From: a virus
Taxonomy: Duplodnaviria > Heunggongvirae > Uroviricota > Caudoviricetes
Length of the DNA stretch: 10,112 nt
Virus record (IMG/VR): IMGVR_UViG_2630968808_000003
Span: 1 to 10,112 of that record
Strand: one strand, 5' to 3'
Positions 1 to 10,112 of the stretch are shown here, one piece after another (position 1 is the stretch's first letter; the number at the start of each line of letters is the position of its first letter). Made by a program: the position numbers and the translations under genes. Below the pieces are notes generated by a model. The model did not search any database and was not told the origin of the DNA. It was given only the letters and a program-made list of their open reading frames with translations.

Positions 1-77
1 TTTGCACAACAGGTAAGAGCATTGAACCCGCAGACCTCGCGGAATTGGTGAAAGGTGCCGCGCAGTGCTCTTATCGT

Positions 78-207
78 TGTGGTGAAGCTCAATGGCGAGC
101 TAGCAGATAGGCGACAGTGAAAATACTAGTCATGTAACTGACCGCCGCGCGTACTGCAATCGGCAGCGCACCGATGGAAGCCGGTTCGATTCCGGCCGCC
201 ACAACCC
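78..207 (+). ncRNA. tRNA-like element of atypical length (degenerate or insert-containing tRNA, or tRNA-mimic RNA)
   Basis: Exact T-arm GCCGG-TTCGATT-CCGGC at 180-196 carrying the conserved GGTTCGATTCC motif. The 3' acceptor strand CGCCACA (197-203) pairs over 7 bp (6 Watson-Crick plus 1 G-U) with TGTGGTG at 78-84. A D-arm-like GCTC-AATGGC-GAGC sits at 87-100, at the expected distance from the 5' acceptor strand. However 79 nt lie between the D-arm and T-arm (about 22 expected), I could not fold a canonical anticodon arm, and the 3' end reads ACCC rather than encoded CCA. Confidence 0.35.
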
Positions 208-293
208 AAACTGAGCCGTAGCCACTGGCTATCCTGAATTCATCAGTGATAGTTATGCTGCGTCTTTCTACACATGACCTTCGTGAAAGCGGT

Positions 294-333
294 GGCAGGA
301 GGTTGCGCTAACAACCTCATGCCGTTTTGCCCG
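294..333 (+). terminator. Candidate intrinsic terminator or stable leader hairpin upstream of the lysis genes
   Basis: 12-bp stem with one G/A mismatch (294-305 GGCAGGAGGTTG pairing with 312-323 CAACCTCATGCC), 6-nt loop CGCTAA, followed one nucleotide later by TTTT (325-328). Its position upstream of the holin is consistent with a lambdoid tR'-type terminator that would be overridden by Q antitermination. Confidence 0.4.
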
Positions 334-428
334 TGCATATCGGTCACGAACAAATCTGATTACTAAACACAGTAGCCTGGATTTGTTCTATCAGTAACCG
401 ACCTTATTCCTAATTAAATAGAGCAAAT

Positions 429-444
429 CCCCTCAATGAAGGGG
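429..444 (+). promoter_or_regulatory. RNA hairpin immediately upstream of the holin dual start (possible translation-initiation control structure)
   Basis: CCCCT (429-433) pairs with AGGGG (440-444) around loop CAATGA; the purine-rich AGGGG that could act as a Shine-Dalgarno lies in the 3' arm, 6 nt before ATG 451. This is analogous in position to the sdi stem-loop that controls the two starts of lambda S. Confidence 0.4.
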
Positions 445-450
445 TAGAGC

Positions 451-654
451 ATGTACCGTATGGACAAAATCAGAGAATGGTTCAGTTACAGCTTCGGAGG
501 ACTGACTGCGATGGGTGGCATTCTCTCCCTGAATGACTGGGCTGTCATCATTGGTATTCTTTGTACTGTCGGCACATTTGGCATCAACTGGTACTACAAG
601 CGCAAAGAGCGCGAGGACAGATTGAATGGCAATGTCACCGGCACTACGAAATAG
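451..654 (+). CDS. Holin, class II, likely pinholin (67 aa), with dual-start motif
   Basis: Two predicted transmembrane segments (Gly-rich [17 protein letters not shown], then [20 protein letters not shown]) and a charged C-terminal tail KRKEREDR. N-terminus MYRMDK gives starts at 451 and 460 with an Arg between, the pattern of antiholin/holin dual starts (compare phage 21 S, MKSMDK as recalled). Lies directly upstream of and overlapping a SAR-type endolysin. Confidence 0.75.
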
Positions 655-1129
655 CGTAATAGCGGCGATAAGTGGCGGGGCTATTGCTATAGCATCTGTG
701 TTAATCACTGGGCCAAGTGGTAACGATGGTCTGGAAGGTGTGAGACATAATCCTTACAAAGACATAGTTGGTGTATGGACTGTGTGTCACGGACATACCG
801 GAAAAGACATCATGCTCGGGAAAACGTATACCGAAGCAGAATGCAAAGCCCTCCTGAATAAAGACCTTGCCACGGTCGCCAGACAAATTAACCCGTACAT
901 CAAAGTCGATATACCGGAAACAACGCGCGGCGCTCTTTACTCGTTCGTCTATAACGTGGGCGCAGGCAATTTCAGAACATCTACTCTTCTTCGCAAAATA
1001 AACCAGGGCGATATCAAGGGCGCATGTGACCAGCTACGTCGCTGGGCATACGCTGGCAGTAAGCAATGGAAAGGCCTGATGACTCGTCGTGAGATTGAGC
1101 GTGAGGTCTGTTTGTGGGGGCAACAATGA
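626..1129 (+). CDS. SAR endolysin, T4-lysozyme-like muramidase (GH24), 167 aa
   Basis: N-terminal Gly/Ala-rich weakly hydrophobic segment [19 protein letters not shown] typical of signal-anchor-release domains. Catalytic spacing E-x8-D-x5-T in [16 protein letters not shown] matches T4 lysozyme E11/D20/T26. Recalled resemblance to phage 21 R and E. coli prophage RrrD-type lysozymes is unverified. Start overlaps the holin 3' end by 29 nt; an alternative start at 632 is possible. Confidence 0.9.
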
Positions 1130-1563
1130 GCAGAGTAACCGCGATTATCTCCGCTCTGGTTATCTGCATCATCGTCTGCCTGTCATGGGCTGTTAATCAT
1201 TACCGTGATAACGCCATGACCTACAAAGAGCAGCGCGATAAAGCCACATCCACAATCGCTGACATGCAGAAGCGTCAACGTGATGTAGCTGAACTCGATG
1301 CCAGATACACAAAGGAGCTTGCTGATGCTAACGCGACTATCGAAAGTCTCCGTGCTGATGTTTCTGCTGGGCGTAAGCGCCTGCAGGTCGCCGCCACCTG
1401 TGCAAAGTCAACGACCGGAGCCAGCGGCATGGGCGATGGAGAAAGCCCAAGACTTACAGCAGATGCTGAACTCAATTATTACCGTCTCCGAAGTGGAATC
1501 GACAGGATAACCGCGCAGGTTAACTACCTGCAGGAATACATCAGGACGCAATGCCTTCGATGA
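1126..1563 (+). CDS. Rz: Rz, inner-membrane spanin subunit (i-spanin), 145 aa
   Basis: ATGA start/stop overlap with the endolysin. N-terminal transmembrane helix [18 protein letters not shown] followed by a coiled-coil-like charged region. The N-terminus [30 protein letters not shown] matches my recollection of lambda Rz. The supplied ORF starts at GTG 1114, but ATG 1126 is preferred. Confidence 0.85.
1325..1510 (+). CDS. Rz1: Rz1, outer-membrane lipoprotein spanin subunit (o-spanin), embedded in the +1 frame of Rz, about 61 aa
   Basis: Lies wholly inside Rz in another frame. Strong Shine-Dalgarno AAAGGAG (1311-1317) sits 7 nt before ATG 1325. Signal peptide [20 protein letters not shown] ends in a lipobox (VSAC), followed by the Pro-rich stretch [13 protein letters not shown] characteristic of Rz1. 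The supplied ORF begins at 1298, but the first Met there lacks signal-peptide character. Confidence 0.75.
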
Positions 1564-1657
1564 TAGCGATAATTTTACTCATCATCCTTCACATCTGGCT
1601 CTGTAGACAGGGTGGTGATCACTTCTGGAGTGAATCCAGATTAAACATCTCATTGCT

Positions 1658-1677
1658 GATGCTTGATATTGAGCATC
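1658..1677. repeat. Perfect 6-bp inverted repeat with 8-nt spacer (GATGCT-TGATATTG-AGCATC)
   Basis: Dyad symmetry read directly from the sequence in the Rz-to-Rha intergenic region; could be a protein-binding site or an RNA hairpin. No function can be assigned from sequence alone. Confidence 0.3.
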
Positions 1678-1738
1678 TGGCGCGCAGTAAGGGGCTGCGT
1701 TGAGATAAGAGCCAGTTCATTACAAATACCAGGATTTA

Positions 1739-1762
1739 GCCTCGCATTTGCGGGGCTTTTTT
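1739..1762 (+). terminator. Rho-independent terminator downstream of the lysis cassette
   Basis: GCCTCGC (1739-1745) pairs with GCGGGGC (1750-1756) as a 7-bp stem (6 Watson-Crick plus 1 G-U) around loop ATTT, followed immediately by TTTTTT (1757-1762). Confidence 0.7.
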
Positions 1763-1906
1763 ATATCTGAATTTCACAGCGCATCTCACGCGCATATTAA
1801 CGAGAGCCTTTCAGTAAGCGAGCCTGAGAAATGCCGTTATAGGTGGCGACCTCTCTCGGGCGGCTTTTCTGTGAGACAGGCTCACTTTCTAAAAGGTAAA
1901 GACGCT

Positions 1907-2431
1907 ATGAATAGTCATTCAGTTATTCCAGCCTTCGACTTCCGAGAAATGGTGCAAGCCAAAAACGGAGAGGTCGTTACCACATCCAGAAAAATTGCCA
2001 AGTACTTCGGCAAGCGACACGGTGATGTTCTCAGGAAAATCGAGCAGGTTAAGGCTGATTGCTCGCGTGAGTTTAGCCAACGCAATTTTGCGTCGGCTGA
2101 TTATATCGATGAACAGGGCAAGGTTCGCCCGATGTACAGCCTGACGAAAGATGGCTGGATCATGGTTGTAATGGGGTTCACCGGGAAAGCTGCTGCAGCA
2201 ATCAAGGAGAGCTATATCGCAGCATTCAATTGGATGGCAGAGCAACTGAGCCGCCGCATGGCAATTGGCGAAGAAATGCAGCACCGCTACGCCATCAAAG
2301 AAACACGCTCAAAGCTGAAAGGTACGATCGGCAGTCGATTAATGAACGAACGGAAGAAAGAGAAGCGTGTCCTGGCTGTCGAGCATGAATACATCTTGCA
2401 GGTGACACAGCCTGAACTGCTGATTAATTGA
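1907..2431 (+). CDS. rha: Rha-family phage regulatory protein (antirepressor-like), 174 aa
   Basis: N-terminal region VTTSRKIAKYFGKRHGDVLRKIEQ ... MYSLTKDGWIMVVMGFTGKAAAAIKESYIAAFNWM fits the conserved phage pRha domain as I recall it. Shine-Dalgarno AAAGG lies about 9 nt before ATG 1907. The supplied ORF extends upstream to TTG 1748, but that start lies inside the terminator hairpin and has no ribosome-binding site. A gene in this position (between the lysis genes and terS) is common in P22-like phages. Confidence 0.8.
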   Translation: MNSHSVIPAFDFREMVQAKNGEVVTTSRKIAKYFGKRHGDVLRKIEQVKADCSREFSQRNFASADYIDEQGKVRPMYSLTKDGWIMVVMGFTGKAAAAIKESYIAAFNWMAEQLSRRMAIGEEMQHRYAIKETRSKLKGTIGSRLMNERKKEKRVLAVEHEYILQVTQPELLIN

Positions 2432-2470
2432 AGATGTCATTACAAAGCCTATCTACGGGTGGGCTTGATA

Positions 2471-2653
2471 ATGAAACCGGAATTTATTCTGGGTAACCAG
2501 TTACGGCAGCACCGCGAAACAACCCAAGCCAGTAAGTGGGAAAATAACACTGGCAGCCACTGAAAGATGAACCTCCTGCCTTATGGCAAAAAAGATTCTT
2601 TGTGGTGGCGGACTGATGGAAAGACATCGGTTATTGCAGAGGCCATTCAATGA
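2471..2653 (+). pseudogene. Possible small ORF interrupted by an in-frame TGA (two same-frame ORFs of 30 and 28 aa joined across the stop at 2561-2563)
   Basis: ATG 2471 to TGA 2561-2563 (MKPEFILGNQLRQHRETTQASKWENNTGSH) and ATG 2567 to TGA 2651-2653 (MNLLPYGKKDSLWWRTDGKTSVIAEAIQ) are in the same frame, separated by one stop and one codon. A G-rich stretch GGGTGGG lies upstream of 2471. No homology could be assessed. Confidence 0.2.
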
Positions 2654-2683
2654 GTGGTCTCGACAATGGCTTATACCCTACAC

Positions 2684-2709
2684 GGGATAACTTAACTGAT
2701 ATCCCTTTT
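2684..2709 (+). terminator. Weak candidate intrinsic terminator closing the Rha module
   Basis: GGGATA (2684-2689) pairs with TATCCC (2700-2705) as a 6-bp stem with a 10-nt loop, followed by TTTT (2706-2709). The stem is AT-rich, so termination efficiency is uncertain. Confidence 0.3.
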
Positions 2710-2730
2710 AACGGATAAACGGAGCCAACA

Positions 2731-2973
2731 ATGGCAGAGATTATTCCCATGACTGAAGAACAGAAATTCCAGTTAGAGATTTACAAACTGGTCATGAACC
2801 AGAACGCAGCCGCAGAAGAAGCATTTCAATTCATCGGCACTGACGAGTTGAAGCTTGAGCTATTCAAAATTCACTTCCAGTCAGGCGGCGCTAATTCAGA
2901 TATCACGACCCGCACTATCGAAGCGGTGCGTAAATCGAAGGAAGCGTTAGACCTGTTCACTACCGGAGCATAA
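2731..2973 (+). CDS. Hypothetical small protein (80 aa) immediately upstream of the terminase small subunit
   Basis: Shine-Dalgarno GGAG 8 nt upstream of ATG 2731; its stop lies 2 nt before the terS start. The product is acidic and predicted helical. A small ORF of similar size occupies this position in P22-like genomes (recollection, unverified). Confidence 0.65.
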   Translation: MAEIIPMTEEQKFQLEIYKLVMNQNAAAEEAFQFIGTDELKLELFKIHFQSGGANSDITTRTIEAVRKSKEALDLFTTGA

Positions 2974-2975
2974 AC

Positions 2976-3416
2976 ATGGCGCGCCCAACAAAGTATCAAG
3001 AGGCGTATGCCGAACAGGCACGCAAACTGTGCTTGCTGGGCTACACCGATGCAGAACTTGCTGATTTCTTTGAAGTCAGTGAGTCAACTATTAACAAGTG
3101 GAAGCTTGATTATCCTAAGTTTTCGGAGTCCATAAAAAAGGGTAAGGCCGTCGCTGATGCAGAAGTTAGTGACCGTCTTTATCAACGCGCTATGGGCTTT
3201 GTGGCTCCAGACATCGATATTCGTGTTATTGAAAACAGAATTGTCGAAACTCCGCTTGAGAAGTATTACCCGCCTGATACAACCGCTGCCATCTTCTGGC
3301 TTAAGAACCGACAGAAGGATAAATGGCGCGACAAGGTTGATCACGAGCTAACAGGCAAAGACGGCGGCGCAATCCAGATTGAAACATCACCGATGAGCAC
3401 TCTATTCGGAAAATGA
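2976..3416 (+). CDS. Terminase small subunit (146 aa)
   Basis: Sits immediately upstream of the large terminase with an ATGA overlap. N-terminal helix-turn-helix-like segment LLGYTDAELADFFEVSESTINKWK typical of the DNA-recognition domain of small terminases. GGAG ribosome-binding site upstream. Confidence 0.8.
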   Translation: MARPTKYQEAYAEQARKLCLLGYTDAELADFFEVSESTINKWKLDYPKFSESIKKGKAVADAEVSDRLYQRAMGFVAPDIDIRVIENRIVETPLEKYYPPDTTAAIFWLKNRQKDKWRDKVDHELTGKDGGAIQIETSPMSTLFGK

Positions 3417-4828
3417 CCTCGATTAATCCTATCTTTGAACCGTTCATTGAGGCGCATCGCTACAAAGTCGCCAAAGGCGGTCGAGGTAGCGGTAAATCAT
3501 GGGCAATTGCGAGACTGCTTGTTGAAGCGGCGCGTCGGCAGCCAGTGCGTATTCTCTGTGCTCGTGAACTGCAAAACAGTATCAGCGATTCGGTAATCCG
3601 GTTGCTTGAAGACACCATAGAGCGGGAAGGGTATTCGGCTGAGTTTGAAATTCAGCGTTCAATGATTCGTCATCTCGGAACGAATGCTGAATTCATGTTC
3701 TACGGCATCAAAAACAACCCGACGAAGATTAAATCGCTAGAAGGCATTGATATCTGCTGGGTGGAGGAAGCGGAAGCGGTAACGAAGGAATCATGGGATA
3801 TCCTGATACCAACCATCCGCAAGCCATTTTCCGAAATATGGGTGAGCTTTAACCCGAAAAACATCCTCGACGATACCTATCAGCGATTCGTCGTAAATCC
3901 TCCAGATGATATTTGTCTGCTGACGGTGAACTACACCGACAACCCGCACTTTCCTGAAGTTCTCCGTCTGGAGATGGAAGAGTGTAAACGCAGAAATCCG
4001 ACACTGTATCGTCACATCTGGCTTGGTGAGCCAGTAAGCGCAAGTGATATGGCAATCATCAAACGTGAATGGCTTGAAGCCGCAACCGATGCGCACAAGA
4101 AACTAGGATGGAAAGCGAAAGGCGCTGTTGTTTCTGCACATGACCCGTCAGATACAGGGCCGGATGCTAAAGGTTATGCATCGCGTCACGGTTCGGTAGT
4201 TAAGCGCATTGCCGAAGGTCTGCTGATGGACATCAACGAGGGGGCTGACTGGGCTACTTCGCTGGCGATTGAAGACGGTGCTGACCACTACTTGTGGGAT
4301 GGTGATGGTGTCGGTGCAGGGCTACGCAGACAGACAACGGAAGCGTTCTCCGGTAAGAAAATCACCGCCACGATGTTCAAGGGCAGCGAATCGCCATTTG
4401 ATGAAGATGCACCATATCAGGCTGGAGCATGGGCTGATGAAGTCGTGCAGGGCGACAACGTTCGCACTATTGGCGATGTGTTCCGCAATAAGCGAGCGCA
4501 ATTCTATTACGCGCTGGCTGACAGGTTGTATCTGACATATCGGGCGGTTGTCCACGGTGAGTATGCAGACCCCGACGACATGCTGAGCTTCGACAAAGAA
4601 GCGATAGGCGAGAAGATGCTGGAGAAGCTGTTTGCAGAACTGACGCAGATTCAGCGCAAATTCAATAACAACGGGAAGCTGGAGCTTATGACTAAGGTCG
4701 AAATGAAGCAGAAGCTCGGTATTCCATCTCCTAACCTGGCTGATGCGCTGATGATGTGTATGCATTGCCCGGAGTCGGCTGCGCAACCCGACTATTCCAG
4801 TTACTCAATTCCTTGTGGTGTAGGTTGA
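3413..4828 (+). CDS. Terminase large subunit (471 aa; ATPase plus nuclease)
   Basis: Walker A P-loop KGGRGSGKS near the N-terminus and a Walker B-like hydrophobic stretch ending DICWVEEAE. Size and position between terS and portal are as expected. The N-terminal sequence resembles, by recollection, the Sf6-type large terminase (unverified). Confidence 0.93.
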   Translation: MTSINPIFEPFIEAHRYKVAKGGRGSGKSWAIARLLVEAARRQPVRILCARELQNSISDSVIRLLEDTIEREGYSAEFEIQRSMIRHLGTNAEFMFYGIKNNPTKIKSLEGIDICWVEEAEAVTKESWDILIPTIRKPFSEIWVSFNPKNILDDTYQRFVVNPPDDICLLTVNYTDNPHFPEVLRLEMEECKRRNPTLYRHIWLGEPVSASDMAIIKREWLEAATDAHKKLGWKAKGAVVSAHDPSDTGPDAKGYASRHGSVVKRIAEGLLMDINEGADWATSLAIEDGADHYLWDGDGVGAGLRRQTTEAFSGKKITATMFKGSESPFDEDAPYQAGAWADEVVQGDNVRTIGDVFRNKRAQFYYALADRLYLTYRAVVHGEYADPDDMLSFDKEAIGEKMLEKLFAELTQIQRKFNNNGKLELMTKVEMKQKLGIPSPNLADALMMCMHCPESAAQPDYSSYSIPCGVG

Positions 4829-4829
4829 T

Positions 4830-7028
4830 ATGGCAGAAAAAAAGATGACTGACTGGCATCGCAAGGTGCTGTGCAACTTTGATAATGCCTGGTCAGCAAC
4901 GCAGGATATGCGTGAGCAGATTATTGAGGCTCAACGTTTCGTCCGGGTATCCGGCGCACAGTGGGAAGGCAGCACAAACGCTGGTTACTCATTTGATGAA
5001 GGCAGGTTTGAGCATTACCCGCGCTTTGAACTGAATAAGATTGCCCGTGAATGTGATCGCATCATTGGCGAGTATCGACAGAATCGCATCAGCGTTAAAT
5101 TCAGGCCGAAGGATGACAAGGCATCGGAAGCGTTAGCCGAAAAGATGAACGGCAAATTCCGCGCTGACTATCAGGAAACATCAGGTGGCGAAGCGTGTGA
5201 TAACGCATTTGATGATGCTGTAACGGGCGGATTCGGTTGTTTCCGCATGTGTGCCGATTACGAAGATGAAATGGACCCAAGTAACGAGCAGCGACGCATC
5301 AGCCTTCTTCCTGTTTACGACCCAGCGACATGCGTCTTCTTCGATCAGGACAGCAAGCAATATGACCGCTCTGATGCTATGTGGGCTATGGAAATGTTCT
5401 CCATGACGCCTAAAGCGTTCGAGGCTGAATACCCTGATTCCATCGCGGCAAGCCTTTCTCGTGATGACACTGGCACTCAATATGACTGGTCAACGCCAGA
5501 TGCCATCTATGTTGGTCGCTACTACGAAGTTCGCATAGAGAAGGTGAAGCTCACGGCATGGCGCAACCCTGTTAGCGGAGAAACGGCAATCTATGATGAA
5601 GAGCAAATCAAAGATATTGTCGACGAGCTGACCGATGGCGCATTCGAACTGATTGGTGAGCGAACTGTGAAGAAACGCCGCGTTTATTGCGGCCTTCTGT
5701 CTGGCGCTGAATGGCTGGAAGAACCGAAGCGTATTCCGGGCGAACATATTCCACTCATCCCGGTATATGGGCGTCGCTCATTTGTTGATAATCAGGAGCG
5801 AATCGAAGGCCACGCAGCAAAAGCGATGGATGCACAGCGTCTTGAGAACCTGATGGTTTCCATGATTGCAGATAACGCTACTCAGGCTGGCGGTGATGGC
5901 ATTCCTGTAGTTGATGTTGACATGATTCCTGGTCCTCTCGCCAATCATTGGGCGGAGCGCAACAAAAAGCGCCCGGCGTTCCTGCCGATGGTCAGTCTGA
6001 AAAACAAAAACGGAGATATTACTGCGCAGGCTCAGGTCAGCAGTTATACGCCTCCGACACAAATGCCTCCAGCTCTTGCCGGGCTATTGCAGTACACCGG
6101 AACGGCTATTCAGCAAATTACAGGTGCGTCGCAGCTTGAGAATATGCCGAGCAACGTCGCTACCGATACCGTTGATAGCATCTTTAACCGGATGGACACG
6201 CAGTCCTATATCTACATGGACAACATGGCTAAATCCATGCGCCGCGCTGGCGTCGTGTGGCTTTCTATGGCTCGTGAAGTCTATGGCAGCGATACGCCAA
6301 TGCGCATCGTTAATGAGGACGGCAGCGATGACGTGGCGTTGATGACTGGTGAAGTGGTTGACCGTCAGACAGGGCAGGTTATCGCGCTTAACGACCTTTC
6401 GCAGGGTAACTATGAAGTGACTGTCGATGTCGGTCAGTCGTTCGCTACTCGCCGTGACGCAACGGTTAAGTCGTTACTTTCCATGCTGGCACTTATCCCA
6501 CCAGGAACGCCGAAGCACGACCTTGTATCGTCGATGATTCTCGACAATATGGACGGCGAAGGGATGGACGACCTTAAAGAATACAACCGCAATCAGTTGC
6601 TTCTGTCTGGAGTTATCAAGCCGAGAACACCAGAAGAACAGCAGATGGTTGAGCAGGCGAAACAACAACAGGCCAGTCAGCCAGATCCGGCTATGGTTGC
6701 AGCGCAAGGTCAGCTTCTTGCAGGTCAGGCTGAATTGCAGAAAGCGCAGAACGAACAGGCAGCCATTCAGGTTAAAGCATTCCAGGCACAGACTGATGCT
6801 CAGGTTGCAGCGGCAAACGTTGTGAAAATCCTCGCATCTGCCGATAGCCAGCAGAAATCTGATATCCGCGAGGCTCTGAAACTGCTCGGACAGTTCCAGC
6901 AACAGCAAGGAGACAATGCCCGTGCTGATGCAGAGCTTGTCCTGAAAAGTCAGGCACAGGGCCATGCGCAGCGCATGGACATCAGCAGCATCCTGCAAAA
7001 ATCAACTCAGCAACAACCACAGCAGTAA
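4830..7028 (+). CDS. Portal protein (732 aa), P22 gp1-like with C-terminal Gln/Ala-rich helical extension
   Basis: Starts 1 nt after the TerL stop. Size is close to P22 gp1 (about 725 aa). The last ~130 residues are Q/A/E-rich and lack helix breakers, consistent with the long C-terminal barrel helix of P22-type portals. Confidence 0.92.
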   Translation: MAEKKMTDWHRKVLCNFDNAWSATQDMREQIIEAQRFVRVSGAQWEGSTNAGYSFDEGRFEHYPRFELNKIARECDRIIGEYRQNRISVKFRPKDDKASEALAEKMNGKFRADYQETSGGEACDNAFDDAVTGGFGCFRMCADYEDEMDPSNEQRRISLLPVYDPATCVFFDQDSKQYDRSDAMWAMEMFSMTPKAFEAEYPDSIAASLSRDDTGTQYDWSTPDAIYVGRYYEVRIEKVKLTAWRNPVSGETAIYDEEQIKDIVDELTDGAFELIGERTVKKRRVYCGLLSGAEWLEEPKRIPGEHIPLIPVYGRRSFVDNQERIEGHAAKAMDAQRLENLMVSMIADNATQAGGDGIPVVDVDMIPGPLANHWAERNKKRPAFLPMVSLKNKNGDITAQAQVSSYTPPTQMPPALAGLLQYTGTAIQQITGASQLENMPSNVATDTVDSIFNRMDTQSYIYMDNMAKSMRRAGVVWLSMAREVYGSDTPMRIVNEDGSDDVALMTGEVVDRQTGQVIALNDLSQGNYEVTVDVGQSFATRRDATVKSLLSMLALIPPGTPKHDLVSSMILDNMDGEGMDDLKEYNRNQLLLSGVIKPRTPEEQQMVEQAKQQQASQPDPAMVAAQGQLLAGQAELQKAQNEQAAIQVKAFQAQTDAQVAAANVVKILASADSQQKSDIREALKLLGQFQQQQGDNARADAELVLKSQAQGHAQRMDISSILQKSTQQQPQQ

Positions 7029-7118
7029 TTAACCCATAACGTGCAATGGCTGTCTTTATGAGGCCTGGCACCTTATTGCCTTCCGATGGGCTGAACATCG
7101 AGTAAACAGGGGTAACAA

Positions 7119-8012
7119 ATGGACCAGATGGCAGAAAACACACCAGAAGTTGAAATCGAAACCGATACATCAGAGCAGATTCCTGATGATGTCGAACTGG
7201 CTGAAGAAGTTGAAACAGAAGATGGCAGTGAGTCCTCTGGCAATGATGCAGAGGAAGCTACTGAAACTGATGACGACGAATCAGAACAGGAATTCTACTT
7301 TGGTGACGAAAAGCTGGATTCGCCAACCAGCGAAGATAGCGCAGAGCATGGACTGGTAAAACACCTGCGCAAGACGATTAAAGAGAAAGACCGCGAGCTG
7401 AAAGAGCTGATGCGTCAGTCTCAGAAACCCGTCGAGCAGCAGCCGGTAATCACTCAACCACCGCGAATGCCAAAACTGGATGATGAGGACATCGGTTTCG
7501 ATGAAGAAATCTATCAGCAACGCATGGCTAAGTGGGCAGAGGATAACGGAAAGTACCAGCAACAGGAGATGGCTCGCAAGCAGAAGGAGCAGGAGCTTCA
7601 GGCTGCTTATCAAGAGCGATTATCCAAATATCAGCAACGTGTTAAGGCTCTCAAGGTTCCTGGCTATCAGGAAGCAGAACAGGCCGTACTCGAGGAAATC
7701 CCCATCGAGACACAAAACGCGATCCTGTTTGAGTCAGAGAAGCCGGAAATCGTTGTTCTGGCGCTTGGTCGCAACGCTGAACTGCGCAAGCAACTGGCAG
7801 AAGCTACCAACCCCGTAGCAATTGGTCGTCTGCTGGAACGTATCGAATCTAAGGCCAGAATCATGCCAAAAGCAAAAACCACGGCAGCCACAACCCCGAC
7901 AGTTAAGGGGAGCAACGGCGCAGTAATCAATAACCTCGACAAACTGAAAGCCAAGGCGCTGGAAACTGGTGACTGGACGCCGTATTTCGCCGCTAAAAAG
8001 GCAAAAAAATAA
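7119..8012 (+). CDS. Scaffolding protein (297 aa)
   Basis: Lies between portal and coat. Strongly acidic N-terminal ~70 residues, a long charged helical middle, and a basic C-terminal tail ending GDWTPYFAAKKAKK. Local pattern LFESEKPEIVVLALGRNAELRKQL resembles the P22 gp8 region LFPEKSAALMYHLGANPEKARQL (recollection). Ribosome-binding site AGGGG upstream. Confidence 0.85.
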   Translation: MDQMAENTPEVEIETDTSEQIPDDVELAEEVETEDGSESSGNDAEEATETDDDESEQEFYFGDEKLDSPTSEDSAEHGLVKHLRKTIKEKDRELKELMRQSQKPVEQQPVITQPPRMPKLDDEDIGFDEEIYQQRMAKWAEDNGKYQQQEMARKQKEQELQAAYQERLSKYQQRVKALKVPGYQEAEQAVLEEIPIETQNAILFESEKPEIVVLALGRNAELRKQLAEATNPVAIGRLLERIESKARIMPKAKTTAATTPTVKGSNGAVINNLDKLKAKALETGDWTPYFAAKKAKK

Positions 8013-8030
8013 CCTATCGGAGCATTAAGC

Positions 8031-9284
8031 ATGGCTAACCAATTAGCAAAAGACCTTGAAATCATGTTCGAAAACTACGTTGAAGGCTTTGAGGCCGCCT
8101 GCGTAGTTTCCCGTAACGCTAAAAAATTCCGTCCCGGTGATACAGCAATGCAGCGAGCAGGTGATGTTCTGTATCGTCCGCAGCATTACCACATGAACAT
8201 TGAGGAAGGCCTCGACCTCAGCAGCAAAACGCCAACAGCACTGGTTCAGCGCCTTGTTCCTTCTGTGTTCAAGGAGCCTAAAAACATTCTGTACACTCTG
8301 GATGCGCGTGAAATGCGTGACTCGGAACATAAAACTGAAGCTGGTCGCGCCGCAGGTATGCGCCTTGCTGCACAGATTGACTCTGACCTGATTTCCATGG
8401 TCACGCAGCGTGCTACTAACGTGATCACGATGGCTGACTCAACCACAGGTTCACAGGGCCGTGATTTGTGGAACTGTGCGGCAGGTATTGATGCCACCAT
8501 GACGGCGATTGGTGTACCGCAGGGTATCAACCGTCGCTCTTTCTGGAACCCCTTCAACTACAAAGACCTTGCTGGCGAGCTTGGTCACCGTGCCTACGCT
8601 CAGGGCGCAACCCTGACAGCATACGAAAAAGCGCAGATCCCTCCGGTTGCTTCCTTTGATAGCTACAAGACCGATATTTCTGGTCGATTACCGAAAGGAA
8701 GCGCTGAATCCTTGACAGTATCAGGCCAACCTGAACACAAGGTTGAAGCGAAAGATTCAAATGGTATGCCAGTTGATAACCGACAGGGGACTATTACGGT
8801 ATCTGCATCTGGCTTGCAGGTTGGTGATGCGTTCACCATTGCCGGTGTGAATTCTGTACACCAGATCACCAAAGACACCACCGGGCAGCCGCAGGTATTC
8901 CGCGTTCTGGCAGTAAGCGGAACGACAGTGACTATCTCCCCGAAAATTCTGCCGCCTGACAACGCAGATGTCGCCAGCCGTCCATATGCAAACGTTGATG
9001 CTAACGCGGCAAATGGTGCAGCAATCACCATTCTCAATAAAAATGCCGCACCGGCTAACCTGTTCTGGGCTGATGGTTCTGTTGAGCTGATGTACGGCAA
9101 ACTGGCGTTCCCGACTGGTCAGGGTCCACAGGTAATGACAGCAACCACCGAGCAGGGCGCTACGCTGATCATGTCTTACGCCTTCGACCACATCAAAGGT
9201 GTAACCACTGCTCGTTTCACCACTCTGTACGGTTGCTCTGTACTTGTTCCTGAATATACGGGCATCGTTATTGCCGGGCAGTAA
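8031..9284 (+). CDS. Major capsid (coat) protein (417 aa), P22 gp5-like
   Basis: Directly follows the scaffold gene with a GGAG ribosome-binding site and is followed by a strong terminator. Size is near P22 coat (430 aa). C-terminal motifs RPYANVD and NLFWADGS parallel the recalled P22 gp5 motifs AYANVN and NVFWADDA. Confidence 0.9.
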   Translation: MANQLAKDLEIMFENYVEGFEAACVVSRNAKKFRPGDTAMQRAGDVLYRPQHYHMNIEEGLDLSSKTPTALVQRLVPSVFKEPKNILYTLDAREMRDSEHKTEAGRAAGMRLAAQIDSDLISMVTQRATNVITMADSTTGSQGRDLWNCAAGIDATMTAIGVPQGINRRSFWNPFNYKDLAGELGHRAYAQGATLTAYEKAQIPPVASFDSYKTDISGRLPKGSAESLTVSGQPEHKVEAKDSNGMPVDNRQGTITVSASGLQVGDAFTIAGVNSVHQITKDTTGQPQVFRVLAVSGTTVTISPKILPPDNADVASRPYANVDANAANGAAITILNKNAAPANLFWADGSVELMYGKLAFPTGQGPQVMTATTEQGATLIMSYAFDHIKGVTTARFTTLYGCSVLVPEYTGIVIAGQ

Positions 9285-9290
9285 TTTTGG

Positions 9291-9314
9291 TGGGGCTTCG
9301 GCCCCATTTTTATT
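9291..9314 (+). terminator. Rho-independent terminator or attenuator after the coat gene
   Basis: TGGGGC (9291-9296) pairs with GCCCCA (9301-9306) around a TTCG tetraloop, followed by TTTTTATT (9307-9314). The operon continues on the same strand, so this is most likely a partial terminator. Confidence 0.7.
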
Positions 9315-9325
9315 GGGAGAAGACA

Positions 9326-9514
9326 ATGGCACGAACAATGCTCTATAAGCCTGGCAACATGATCACCTGTGGTCAGTTTGCTGTCGATTACATCATTGTT
9401 GATGACGAAGAAGTTAAATCTCACCTGAAAAAAGGTTGGGTAAAAACTCCTGAAGAAACCGCAACGAAGCAAAAAGTGGCTAAGGCGGAAGAAGATGGCG
9501 AAAACGAAGGGTGA
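9326..9514 (+). CDS. Hypothetical small protein (62 aa) between coat and gp4-like gene
   Basis: Ribosome-binding site GGGAGAAG about 6 nt before ATG 9326 (the supplied ORF starts earlier at 9287, inside the terminator). The 3' end overlaps the next gene by 20 nt. Acidic C-terminus. A small ORF is found at this position in P22-like phages (recollection). Confidence 0.55.
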   Translation: MARTMLYKPGNMITCGQFAVDYIIVDDEEVKSHLKKGWVKTPEETATKQKVAKAEEDGENEG

Positions 9515-9956
9515 TCTCGTTCTAAAGGCTTTACGAAAAGCCGGGCTGTATTCCAATGCCACGTTGACAGATGCTGACCCTCAGGCAATTGAAGATGCCA
9601 TTAATGACCTCGAAGACATGATGGCAGCATGGCAGGCGAAAGGTATCGAGCTTGGGTATCAGTTTGCTGATACAGAAAACGGCATCATGCCGTTACCTGA
9701 CGATGATTCAGGCATCCCTGCATGGGCAAATGATGGCGTCGCTTTGAAACTCGCTGTGCAAGTGTGCATGGATAACGTCATTCAGCCGTCAGACGCTCTC
9801 CTTACCGCTGCTGACAGTGCATATCAAACAATCTGTATCGCTTTAACCAAAATACCACCACTTGAGCGGCGAAATGACATGCCTCGCGGTAGTGGTAACA
9901 AAAGCGCGTTTACGTGGAATCGGTTTTACATCGAGAAAGATGATCCGAGTACGTGA
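9495..9956 (+). CDS. Head-to-tail adaptor / head completion protein, P22 gp4-like (153 aa)
   Basis: Position after the coat gene and before a gp10-like gene. N-terminal pattern KTKGDLVLKALRKAGL...ATLTD...PQ...DA..DLEDMMAAW resembles my recollection of the P22 gp4 N-terminus (unverified). Confidence 0.7.
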   Translation: MAKTKGDLVLKALRKAGLYSNATLTDADPQAIEDAINDLEDMMAAWQAKGIELGYQFADTENGIMPLPDDDSGIPAWANDGVALKLAVQVCMDNVIQPSDALLTAADSAYQTICIALTKIPPLERRNDMPRGSGNKSAFTWNRFYIEKDDPST

Positions 9957-9965
9957 GGTGAATAA

Positions 9966-10112
9966 ATGCCGATTCAGCAACTTCCGCTCATGAAAGGCGT
10001 CGGCAAAGACTTCCGAAACGCCGACTATATCGACTATCTGCCAGTGAATATGCTGGCTACACCCAAAGAAATCCTGAACAGCAGCGGATATCTTCGCTCA
10101 TTCCCGGGCATT
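9966..10112 (+). CDS. Tail accessory / head completion protein, P22 gp10-like; 5' partial, continues beyond the window
   Basis: Strong ribosome-binding site GAGGTG 6 nt upstream of ATG 9966; the frame is open to the window end (49 codons). The N-terminus MPIQQLPLMKGVGKDF matches the recalled start of P22 gp10 (unverified), and synteny agrees. Confidence 0.7.
   Translation, partial: MPIQQLPLMKGVGKDFRNADYIDYLPVNMLATPKEILNSSGYLRSFPGI

Follow-up and report, generated by a model that had tools for sequence, protein, structure and literature searches.

A predicted leader RNA with two pseudoknots heads exchangeable gene cassettes in many temperate enterobacterial phages

INTRODUCTION

Several described systems bear comparison with the leader considered here, an RNA element upstream of the rha gene (ATG 1907 to 2431) in the late region of a Lederbergvirus (P22-like) phage. 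The window, i.e. the whole stretch of DNA analysed, comprises 10,112 nucleotides (nt) (IMG/VR record IMGVR_UViG_2630968808_000003, positions 1 to 10,112), and coordinates refer to it unless another locus, given by an L number or phage name, is indicated. In phage T4, simple hairpins occlude the ribosome-binding sites of homing-endonuclease genes (I-TevI, seg), and late promoters inside the hairpin relieve the block. In preQ1-II/III and SAM-II/V riboswitches, the ribosome-binding site forms one strand of a pseudoknot-stabilised helix within a compact, covarying fold. Morons, as reportedly set out by Juhala and colleagues in 2000, are extra genes that bring their own promoter and terminator into a late operon. 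The preQ1 riboswitch classes have been reviewed (PMC11625349). In the isrK-orf45-anrP locus of prophage Gifsy-1, terminator read-through yields a translationally silent, structured mRNA for the anti-repressor-like gene anrP (Hershko-Shalev et al. 2016, PMC4825925). Expression of the anti-repressor-like gene is toxic, and its translation is switched on by an RNA rearrangement (PMC4825925).

The Gifsy-1 locus resembles the one described here in that a terminator and a structured leader precede an anti-repressor-like gene in a lambdoid prophage. It differs in adjoining Q at the late promoter and in having its own promoter, an upstream open reading frame (ORF) and a short RNA, IsrK, that acts in trans; moreover, no pseudoknots have been described for it, whereas the window leader has two. 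Homology to isrK/anrP was considered and rejected, as model R1 gave no match at the isrK locus (Gifsy-1 34076-34349) and Rfam isrK had no match in the window. We therefore treat isrK-orf45-anrP, by analogy, as a functional precedent and not as a homologue. With the preQ1 and SAM riboswitches the leader shares a cis-acting 5' position, a pseudoknot-stabilised Shine-Dalgarno (SD) helix, a compact fold and covariation. It nevertheless matches no Rfam riboswitch, has few conserved unpaired nucleotides and precedes non-metabolic genes. A covarying fold and a sequestered SD, such as a riboswitch would have, are present, but in 8 of 40 leaders the SD lies outside the helix in question. The T4 hairpins likewise sequester the SD of accessory nuclease genes in abundant transcripts, and some genes behind leaders of the window type are HNH- or GIY-YIG-like, but the fold described here contains two pseudoknots, and the search for a promoter-like site inside it gave none. 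Finally, rha shares with morons the character of an extra, dispensable gene in a variable late slot, present or absent between relatives and bounded by hairpins. Unlike a moron, it has no promoter-like site, its terminator lies upstream instead of downstream, and its flanks are RNA elements common to many unrelated genes. As an SD-sequestering structured leader the element is of a known kind; as a fold and family it appears to be new.

RESULTS

A leader RNA supported by covariation

The conserved RNA domain spans ~120 nt (1778-1897, + strand) and comprises helices P0-P4 and two pseudoknots. At its 5' end, the P0 hairpin pairs GCGC 1779-1782 with GCGC 1790-1793 around the loop AUCUCAC (1783-1789). 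Pseudoknot 2 (PK2) joins this loop (UCUCAC, 1784-1789) to GUGAGA (1871-1876) in J3/2, the bulge between P3 and P2. In pseudoknot 1 (PK1), a strand of 6-8 nt immediately before P1 is bound by the loop at the tip of P3; in the window, CGAGAG (1801-1806), which abuts P1, pairs with CUCUCG (1853-1858). The nested helices, all on the + strand, are P1 (1807-1814 with 1889-1896), P2a (1816-1818 with 1885-1887), P2 (1820-1826 with 1877-1883), P3 (1827-1836 with 1861-1870) and the side hairpin P4 (1841-1844 with 1849-1852, loop GGCG). The SD, AAGG (1893-1896), is part of the 3' strand of P1. Two arms of P2 had already been listed as an inverted repeat in a first-pass annotation of the sequence; GAGCCTG was correctly placed at 1820-1826, and CAGGCTC is real but lies at 1877-1883, not 1878-1884.

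Homologous leaders were gathered by pattern scans of viral, genome and metagenome collections and from further phage records, giving 40-42 distinct sequences of several types. The scan of one genome per species contributed 3 loci and the metagenome scan 16, several of them duplicates; eight pattern hits were dropped as chance (L012, L019, L035, L036, L039, L044, L047 and L048). Two alignments were analysed, a raw MAFFT alignment (A2) and one (A4) for which 40 distinct leaders were fitted to a covariance model of the nested helices and scored with PK2 included. In A4, pairing holds in 88.2% of cells, both sides have changed at 28 of 42 pairs, and none of 500 shuffles was as good. The covariation score was 0.258, compared to at most 0.063 for slid partners. 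The raw alignment behaved similarly, with 78.8% of cells paired, compensatory changes at 21 of 43 pairs, no shuffle as good (0/500) and slid controls far below.

Support extends to the individual elements. Leader types differ by replacement of whole helices with complementarity kept, P2 of type C being AGCCCAG/CUGGGCU, and across leaders P2 is 96% paired with compensatory changes at 5 of 7 pairs. All eight pairs of the inner part of P3 show compensatory changes, while P0 is 94.3% paired (A4) and its flanking pair covaries (UA, UG, CG, AU). PK2 was found unprompted by RNAalifold on the raw alignment; in A4 its cells are 95.6% paired and four of its six pairs compensatory, even though it lay outside the model from which the alignment was made. 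Each of seven distinct bulge sequences comes with a P0 loop complementary to it, and at least five Watson-Crick pairs are kept in 13 of 14 distinct loop/bulge combinations (e.g. UCGCAC/GUGCGA, UCACAC/GUGUGA, UUCUCC/GGAGAA, UGCCC/GGGCA and CCGCAA/UUGCGG). PK1 could not be counted on the model-fitted alignment, where the types do not keep its 3' strand in register, and was counted by script instead. Its 5' strand occurs as 16 distinct sequences, each complementary to its own loop, and positions -4 to -7 show 3-4 pair types each. A PK1 helix of at least 6 base pairs (bp) abutting P1 was present in 83% of 29 unique leaders, compared to 6% with shuffled loops. A further 4-bp pairing proposed by RNAalifold on the raw alignment (CAGN/NCUG) was not adopted; three of its four pairs show no variation, and the column of the remaining one finds a better partner within P3.

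The covariance model scored 136.8 bits on the + strand, versus 20.1 bits on the - strand. Together with the G-U pairs, these scores show that the RNA of the + strand is under selection. Folding of the window's leader by itself was less telling. The minimum free energy structure of 1763-1915 includes the inverted-repeat pairings, with a z-score of -2.2, and 6 of 200 shuffled sequences folded as well. The structured leader proposed in the first-pass annotation is therefore only marginally above chance as a single sequence, and it is the comparative evidence that makes the structure significant. A coding function was also considered, since in the window a frame is open from TTG 1748. In most homologues this frame meets a stop 1-5 codons before the ATG, and the indels are not multiples of three. 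With such early closure in most copies, the leader is judged to be non-coding.

Rfam 15 (4227 models) was searched with the whole window at E values up to 1, and nothing was returned besides a weak tmRNA-like match considered below. Three leader types, those of the window, L008 and L010, searched at E values up to 10, gave nothing beyond generic hairpins and sites resembling terminators; none exceeded 19 bits, whereas the thresholds start at 32 bits. The structure was likewise not found in the searchable literature. On these comparative grounds, the leader is a well-supported structured RNA, and its role at rha is probably regulatory.

Its position relative to the start codon is constrained. 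AGG lies within the 3' strand of P1 in 32 of 40 distinct leaders, and the distance from the end of P1 to the AUG is 8-10 nt in 38 of 40. As regards overall shape, P3 with PK1 (16-18 bp) and P1-P2a-P2 (~20 bp) are joined at both ends and similar in length, which would fit two side-by-side stacks, and P0 might then be docked on their hinge through PK2.

Some copies depart from this plan. In phi80 (L062, JX871397), a second leader copy at 338-464 lacks P4, scores 87.3 bits and precedes PHI80_66, an N15 gp59-like gene, and the leader of mEp237 (L051) has the same form. These copies indicate that P4 is dispensable. In one common class of Stx2a phages (Stx2_EH0787, L060, 1222-1358), the leader upstream of rha is without the 5' half of P0 and hence without PK2, both presumably lost; it may be a copy in decay or a variant with a different mode of action.

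Exchange of payload genes between conserved flanks

Local alignment of the window with eleven loci resolved this part of the genome into blocks. The end of Rz, up to 1556, is common to phi80, HK106, phiKp_30 and P22. Positions 1557-1737 form an optional insert. A third block, consisting of a terminator (T0) and the leader, runs from 1738 to 1911/1913 and is shared with phages that carry other genes in the slot. Homology then returns at 2430-2443, directly 3' of the stop codon. In the lambda-like phages 2B8 and PhiR70_1, 1738-2473 is shared as a unit at 97.5-98.7% identity. Judged from these alignments, the payload ORF is swapped from ATG to stop between conserved RNA-forming flanks. That both flanks are conserved RNA elements explains how the genes are exchanged with single-codon precision.

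The 3' flank begins with a hairpin that the first-pass annotation had not listed (2437-2474, + strand). Its outer stem (2437-2442/2469-2474) and inner stem (2445-2453/2458-2466) are capped by a UACG tetraloop (2454-2457), and no U tract follows it. The surrounding sequence (2430-2500) folds with -25.7 kcal/mol (z = -5.0). The hairpin is conserved in HK106, S107, phiKp_30, CobraSix and 2B8, where it comes immediately 3' of the stop codon although the payload genes differ, and homology with 2B8 and PhiR70_1 ends at 2473. This hairpin is the true structural 3' boundary of the module. The boundary proposed earlier, a weaker terminator at 2684-2709, does not qualify; a hairpin exists there, but it has a 10-nt loop and only four T residues after it, and the terminator scan did not report it. 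It sits in a small ORF25-like frame (2650-2718), across a mosaic junction (2689/2717).

On sequence evidence, then, the unit is a cassette of T0, the ~120-nt leader RNA, a payload ORF and the UACG-tetraloop hairpin, with rha as one interchangeable payload. In a blastn search with 1730-1930, the stretch from terminator to ATG was matched in 170 phage records at 82-94% identity, and the genes behind the matched leaders encode Rha at 99%, 73%, 43% or 37% identity, KilA-N, GIY-YIG-like and other proteins. The diverged leader type found before ant in Stx phages, used as query, matched 305 phage records. Conversely, only 1 of 242 phage records matching 1500-3000 covered at least 80% of that region; most match nothing but the flanks and have other genes in the slot.

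The leader heads at least nine payload architectures. Phage_pRha occurs alone or joined to ORF11CD3, and KilA-N alone or joined to ORF11CD3 or P63C; Bro-N and P22_AR_N are each combined with ORF11CD3. ANT/KilAC, T5orf172/MUG113 and HNH_3, the last either alone or together with AP2, were also found, as were a protein like gp59 of N15, a membrane protein and some unknown proteins. Most of these belong to the domain-shuffled set of phage DNA-binding proteins that Iyer, Koonin and Aravind reportedly described in 2002.

Carriers of the leader include P22, phi80, HK97-like phages, ST64B, and Stx1 and Stx2 phages, and the window type of leader was found in 953 of 5,426 complete Escherichia coli genomes. 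Stx phages, phi80, L011 and L020 each carry the cassette twice. In Stx1 and Stx2 phages, one copy precedes rha and another precedes ant; in a Stx phage compared in detail, the ant copy is diverged and ant lies between R and Rz. In Klebsiella prophage-derived phages (L056 1197-1339, L052 1226-1370), the leader and a KilA-N/P63C or Rha gene lie among tail and structural genes instead of following the lysis genes, indicating that the cassette is not tied to one slot. One type C copy lies outside the Enterobacterales, in Halomonas halocynthiae DSM 14573 (L014 1891-2040, identical to L032 6254-6403), and has no ATG at the usual distance. In Gifsy-1 (L063, NC_010392), a weak match on the minus strand (33256-33378; 16.4 bits, E ~0.03), with P0 followed by GAGCCUUUCAG, lies downstream of anrP, in the same region as the reported small RNA IsrJ; judging by its sequence, it is apparently a degenerate copy of the leader.

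Origin of the leader transcript

T0, the first element of the cassette, occupies 1738-1763 on the + strand and reads AGCCTCGC-ATTT-GCGGGGCT followed by TTTTTT. Its stem (1738-1757) has eight pairs, six of them G-C, and a loop of four, and it is the top-ranked terminator-like site in the window (folding z = -3.7), in agreement with the strong terminator that the first-pass annotation had placed upstream of rha. Homology to the lambda-like phages 2B8 and phi80 begins exactly at 1738. A canonical terminator ends 3-21 nt upstream of the leader in 34 of 42 unique copies. Between 1758 and 3150, the terminator scan found no + strand terminator-like site.

The same annotation had proposed a sigma70-like promoter between T0 and the ATG. 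Its hexamers are present (TTCACA 1773-1778 and TATTAA 1795-1800), yet the promoter scan reported no + strand sigma70 promoter-like site anywhere in the window, TATTAA lacking the T at position 6 of a -10 element. Nor was a promoter-like site found at the proposed place in any of 42 homologous leaders (0/42). The segment that holds the candidate -35 is absent or different in homologous leaders; the hexamer is replaced in phi80, 2B8, HK106 and g341c, and in type B leaders the whole segment is gone, with the U run only 3-5 nt from P0. A separation of just 3-5 nt between the U run and the start of the RNA domain is seen in many homologues. Moreover, a transcript starting at ~1807 would lack P0 and the 5' strands of both pseudoknots. 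As these covary, the start of the RNA must lie upstream of 1778. In lambdoid late operons such as those of lambda and P22, the polymerase that reads through terminators is Q-modified. The simplest reading of the sequence data is that the leader RNA is made by read-through of T0, i.e. by Q-antiterminated late transcription.

These data change the picture of rha as a self-contained module. It is exchangeable and has a terminator at its start, as had been proposed, but a sigma70 promoter of its own, expression in the lysogen and a downstream terminator are not supported. A moron-type layout is not borne out, given that no promoter-like site and no canonical downstream terminator were found and that the leader is not specific to rha.

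The P22F small RNA and misannotated genes

A 2026 study of small RNAs in P22 infection reported a small non-coding RNA (sncRNA) of 89 nt, P22F, whose 3' end lies 6 nt before the rha start and to which no function was assigned (PMC13397905). It was detected in P22-infected Salmonella cells and in outer-membrane vesicles (926 and 2054 reads), the reads being given for infection only (PMC13397905). We find that the P22F sequence is that of the leader, and the P22 locus scores 81.9 bits with the covariance model. P22F spans P2, P3, P4 and the 3' strand of P1; its 5' end falls inside the 5' strand of P1 and its 3' end at the SD. This identity indicates that the leader RNA exists in vivo. A second sncRNA from the same study, P22G (204 nt, PMC13397905), is homologous to ~2503-2645 of the window.

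Several annotated genes overlap the element. In P22 (L061, NC_002371), it spans 705-856, and the annotated start of orf201/rha (L061:776) lies inside it; the ATG that fits the model is 23 codons downstream (L061:845). In phiv205-1, the rha coding sequence is annotated from a GTG inside P2/P1 (L001 3340). Gene 63 of g341c (L007 1497-1667) and PHI80_65 of phi80 (L062 330-629, minus strand) also overlap the element and are probably not genes.

The Rha protein and surrounding features

The gene behind the window leader encodes a protein of 174 residues. The profile search suggested in the first-pass annotation placed it above the gathering threshold for the Phage_pRha domain (PF09669; residues 25-111, E=2.2e-28, 99.1 bits against a cut-off of 29.9), and it also matches phrog_518, 'Rha-like transcriptional regulator' (E=1.6e-77). 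Its identity to phi80 Rha is 72.8% over 99% of the protein, and the gene order of phi80 is the same (Rz, terminator, rha, in the slot after the lysis genes). By these measures, the window protein is an ordinary member of the Rha family, as had been predicted. P22 Rha (orf201) differs in having a C-terminal ORF11CD3 domain, which the window protein lacks; the rha genes of both phi80 and P22 are headed by the same leader as that of the window. No solved structure for a Rha protein was found by sequence search, and the lysogen transcriptomes of Owen et al. (2020) do not mention rha. Rha is described, in a passage of PMC4936722 that cites Mozola and Friedman (1985), as stopping phage growth in IHF-defective hosts. 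The exact IHF consensus (WATCAANNNNTTR) has no match in the whole window, which therefore lends no support to direct control by IHF at the rha locus.

Upstream of the cassette lie genes for lysozyme (626-1129) and Rz (1114-1563), followed on the + strand by a small ORF (1551-1703) that overlaps the Rz stop (ATGA) and encodes 50 residues with a hydrophobic N-terminus (phrog_11822, function unknown, E=1.4e-37). Among the loci compared, only phiv205-1, PhiR70_1 and g341c have the segment that holds most of this ORF (1557-1737), and on this comparison the ORF belongs to an optional insert between Rz and T0, outside the cassette. Escherichia phage phiv205-1 is the closest record (98% identity over 1528-3100). 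Downstream of the 3' hairpin is a structured non-coding flank (2477-2730, + strand), which contains the ORF25-like frame and hairpin mentioned above. The region 2432-2730 folds with -101 kcal/mol, compared to -73 ± 4.7 for shuffled sequences (z = -6.0), and occurs in 207 phage records at 89-98% identity, including HK97, HK106 and many P22-like phages, mostly without annotation; these homologues are too alike for covariation analysis. It is followed by a DUF2560 gene (2731-2973) and then by the terminase (small and large subunit), portal, scaffold and coat genes. Just 3' of the coat gene, and still inside the late operon, there is another strong site resembling an intrinsic terminator (9289-9308), with the sequence GGTGGGGC-TTCG-GCCCCATT and a T run behind it. 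Terminators of this kind within the operon have been discussed for phage L (bioRxiv 10.1101/2020.10.05.325894). The tmRNA-like match noted above (RF00023, 3' part) lies at 1-207, clipped by the end of the window, and scores 12.9 bits against a gathering threshold of 47 (E=0.07). ARAGORN found no tRNA or tmRNA in the window, so this match is probably due to chance.

DISCUSSION

The reading we favour, with a probability of roughly 0.55, is that of a conserved late-operon cassette whose leader gates translation of the payload on read-through late transcripts. T0 would stop ordinary transcription leaving the lysis genes, such that only Q-antiterminated late polymerase would transcribe the cassette. 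The folded leader, locked by its two pseudoknots, would keep the ribosome-binding site closed on a very abundant late mRNA. Closure may limit or time the translation of payloads that are harmful when mis-expressed, such as Rha, antirepressors of the Kil/Ant type and nucleases. The intricate tertiary fold suggests that opening could depend on a specific factor, be it a ligand, a protein, processing or the ribosome.

Several observations weigh against this reading. Coupling between the fold and translation is a prediction. In P22-type and L020b-type variants the SD lies just 3' of P1 and not inside it (8 of 40 leaders have it outside P1), and simple SD occlusion is not universal. Two pseudoknots exceed what occlusion requires. 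Once the pseudoknots are counted, few strongly conserved unpaired nucleotides are left, which is atypical for a small-molecule pocket. The sequence would be compatible both with PK1 coexisting with P1-P3 and with PK1 alternating with them. Canonical T0 is missing in 8 of 42 leader copies. Lastly, P22F has discrete ends, a sign of processing, and processing might itself be what the element is for.

A more ambitious version, which we think distinctly less likely than not, would make the leader a new sensing or catalytic RNA class, be it a riboswitch, a ribozyme or a switch that senses a protein or the ribosome. In temperate enterobacterial phages, those with Shiga toxin among them, it would time translation of antirepressor-type (Rha, KilA, Ant, Bro) and nuclease payloads and so couple some signal from cell or phage to prophage cross-induction or lysis commitment. 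A different role is suggested by P22F itself. The leader might yield a stable, processed RNA acting in trans as a base-pairing small RNA, sponge or decoy, with the payload merely linked to it, and accumulation of the 89-nt species in infected cells and outer-membrane vesicles (PMC13397905), a compact and probably nuclease-resistant fold, and the Halomonas copy (L014/L032) without a following ATG are all in keeping with such a role. Yet P1 ends 8-10 nt before the AUG in nearly all leaders (38 of 40), the element includes the SD, homology breaks off exactly at the ATG, and no single-stranded seed is conserved, the loops that are conserved being engaged in pairing within the molecule. We consider a function in trans unlikely. 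The same ends of P22F would also fit a self-cleaving ribozyme or an RNase processing site that cuts the late RNA between the lysis genes and the payload, either uncoupling their stability or activating translation by removal of the 5' strand of P1; a cut inside that strand, where P22F begins, would free the SD. Catalytic RNAs typically have folds of this sort, ~120 nt long with two pseudoknots, and HNH and GIY-YIG-like mobile genes are among its associates. Against this, no Rfam 15 ribozyme family matched even at E values up to 10, no invariant unpaired core is obvious, and the ends of P22F come from small-RNA sequencing and are perhaps imprecise. Cleavage as the primary function seems improbable to us.

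The remaining two explanations fare worse. Under the first, rha is a moron with its own sigma70 promoter (1773-1778/1795-1800) and two terminators, transcribed independently of the late operon and possibly in lysogens, with the leader hairpins playing a regulatory part. Both hexamers are indeed present, 16 nt apart, the related leaders of S107, Lyz12581Vzw, L031 and P22 contain a -35 similar to TTTCAC, and the slot between Rz and terminase is a known variable position whose genes vary among phages. However, the candidate fails the promoter scan, which found no + strand site in the window, and it has no counterpart in 42 homologous leaders; its -35 is replaced in phi80, 2B8, HK106 and g341c, and the segment is missing in type B. 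A start near 1807 would remove P0 and both covarying 5' strands of the pseudoknots, and the 'terminator' at 2684-2709 is non-canonical. We regard this explanation as very doubtful. The second would reduce the leader to a patch of DNA homology, a recombination linker with no RNA function. Mosaic junctions do fall at the ends of the leader (1738 and 1911-1913), and it flanks many different genes. Recombination would have no need, though, of compensatory changes in 28 of 42 pairs, two long-range pairings among them, or of G-U pairs that fit one strand. The covariation already contradicts a pure homology patch, which we find scarcely credible.

The leader is common yet has gone unstudied. It has no Rfam family, and the sole mention that we found in the literature is an unexplained small RNA of P22. 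Its recognition exposes annotation errors in the starts of P22 orf201 and phiv205-1 rha (GTG) and in g341c gene 63 and PHI80_65. It heads the entire group of antirepressor-like genes with shuffled domains. The leader may also bear on the old phenotype that links Rha and IHF. If it controls translation of its payloads, it would bear on cross-talk in prophage induction and on the biology of Shiga-toxin phages.

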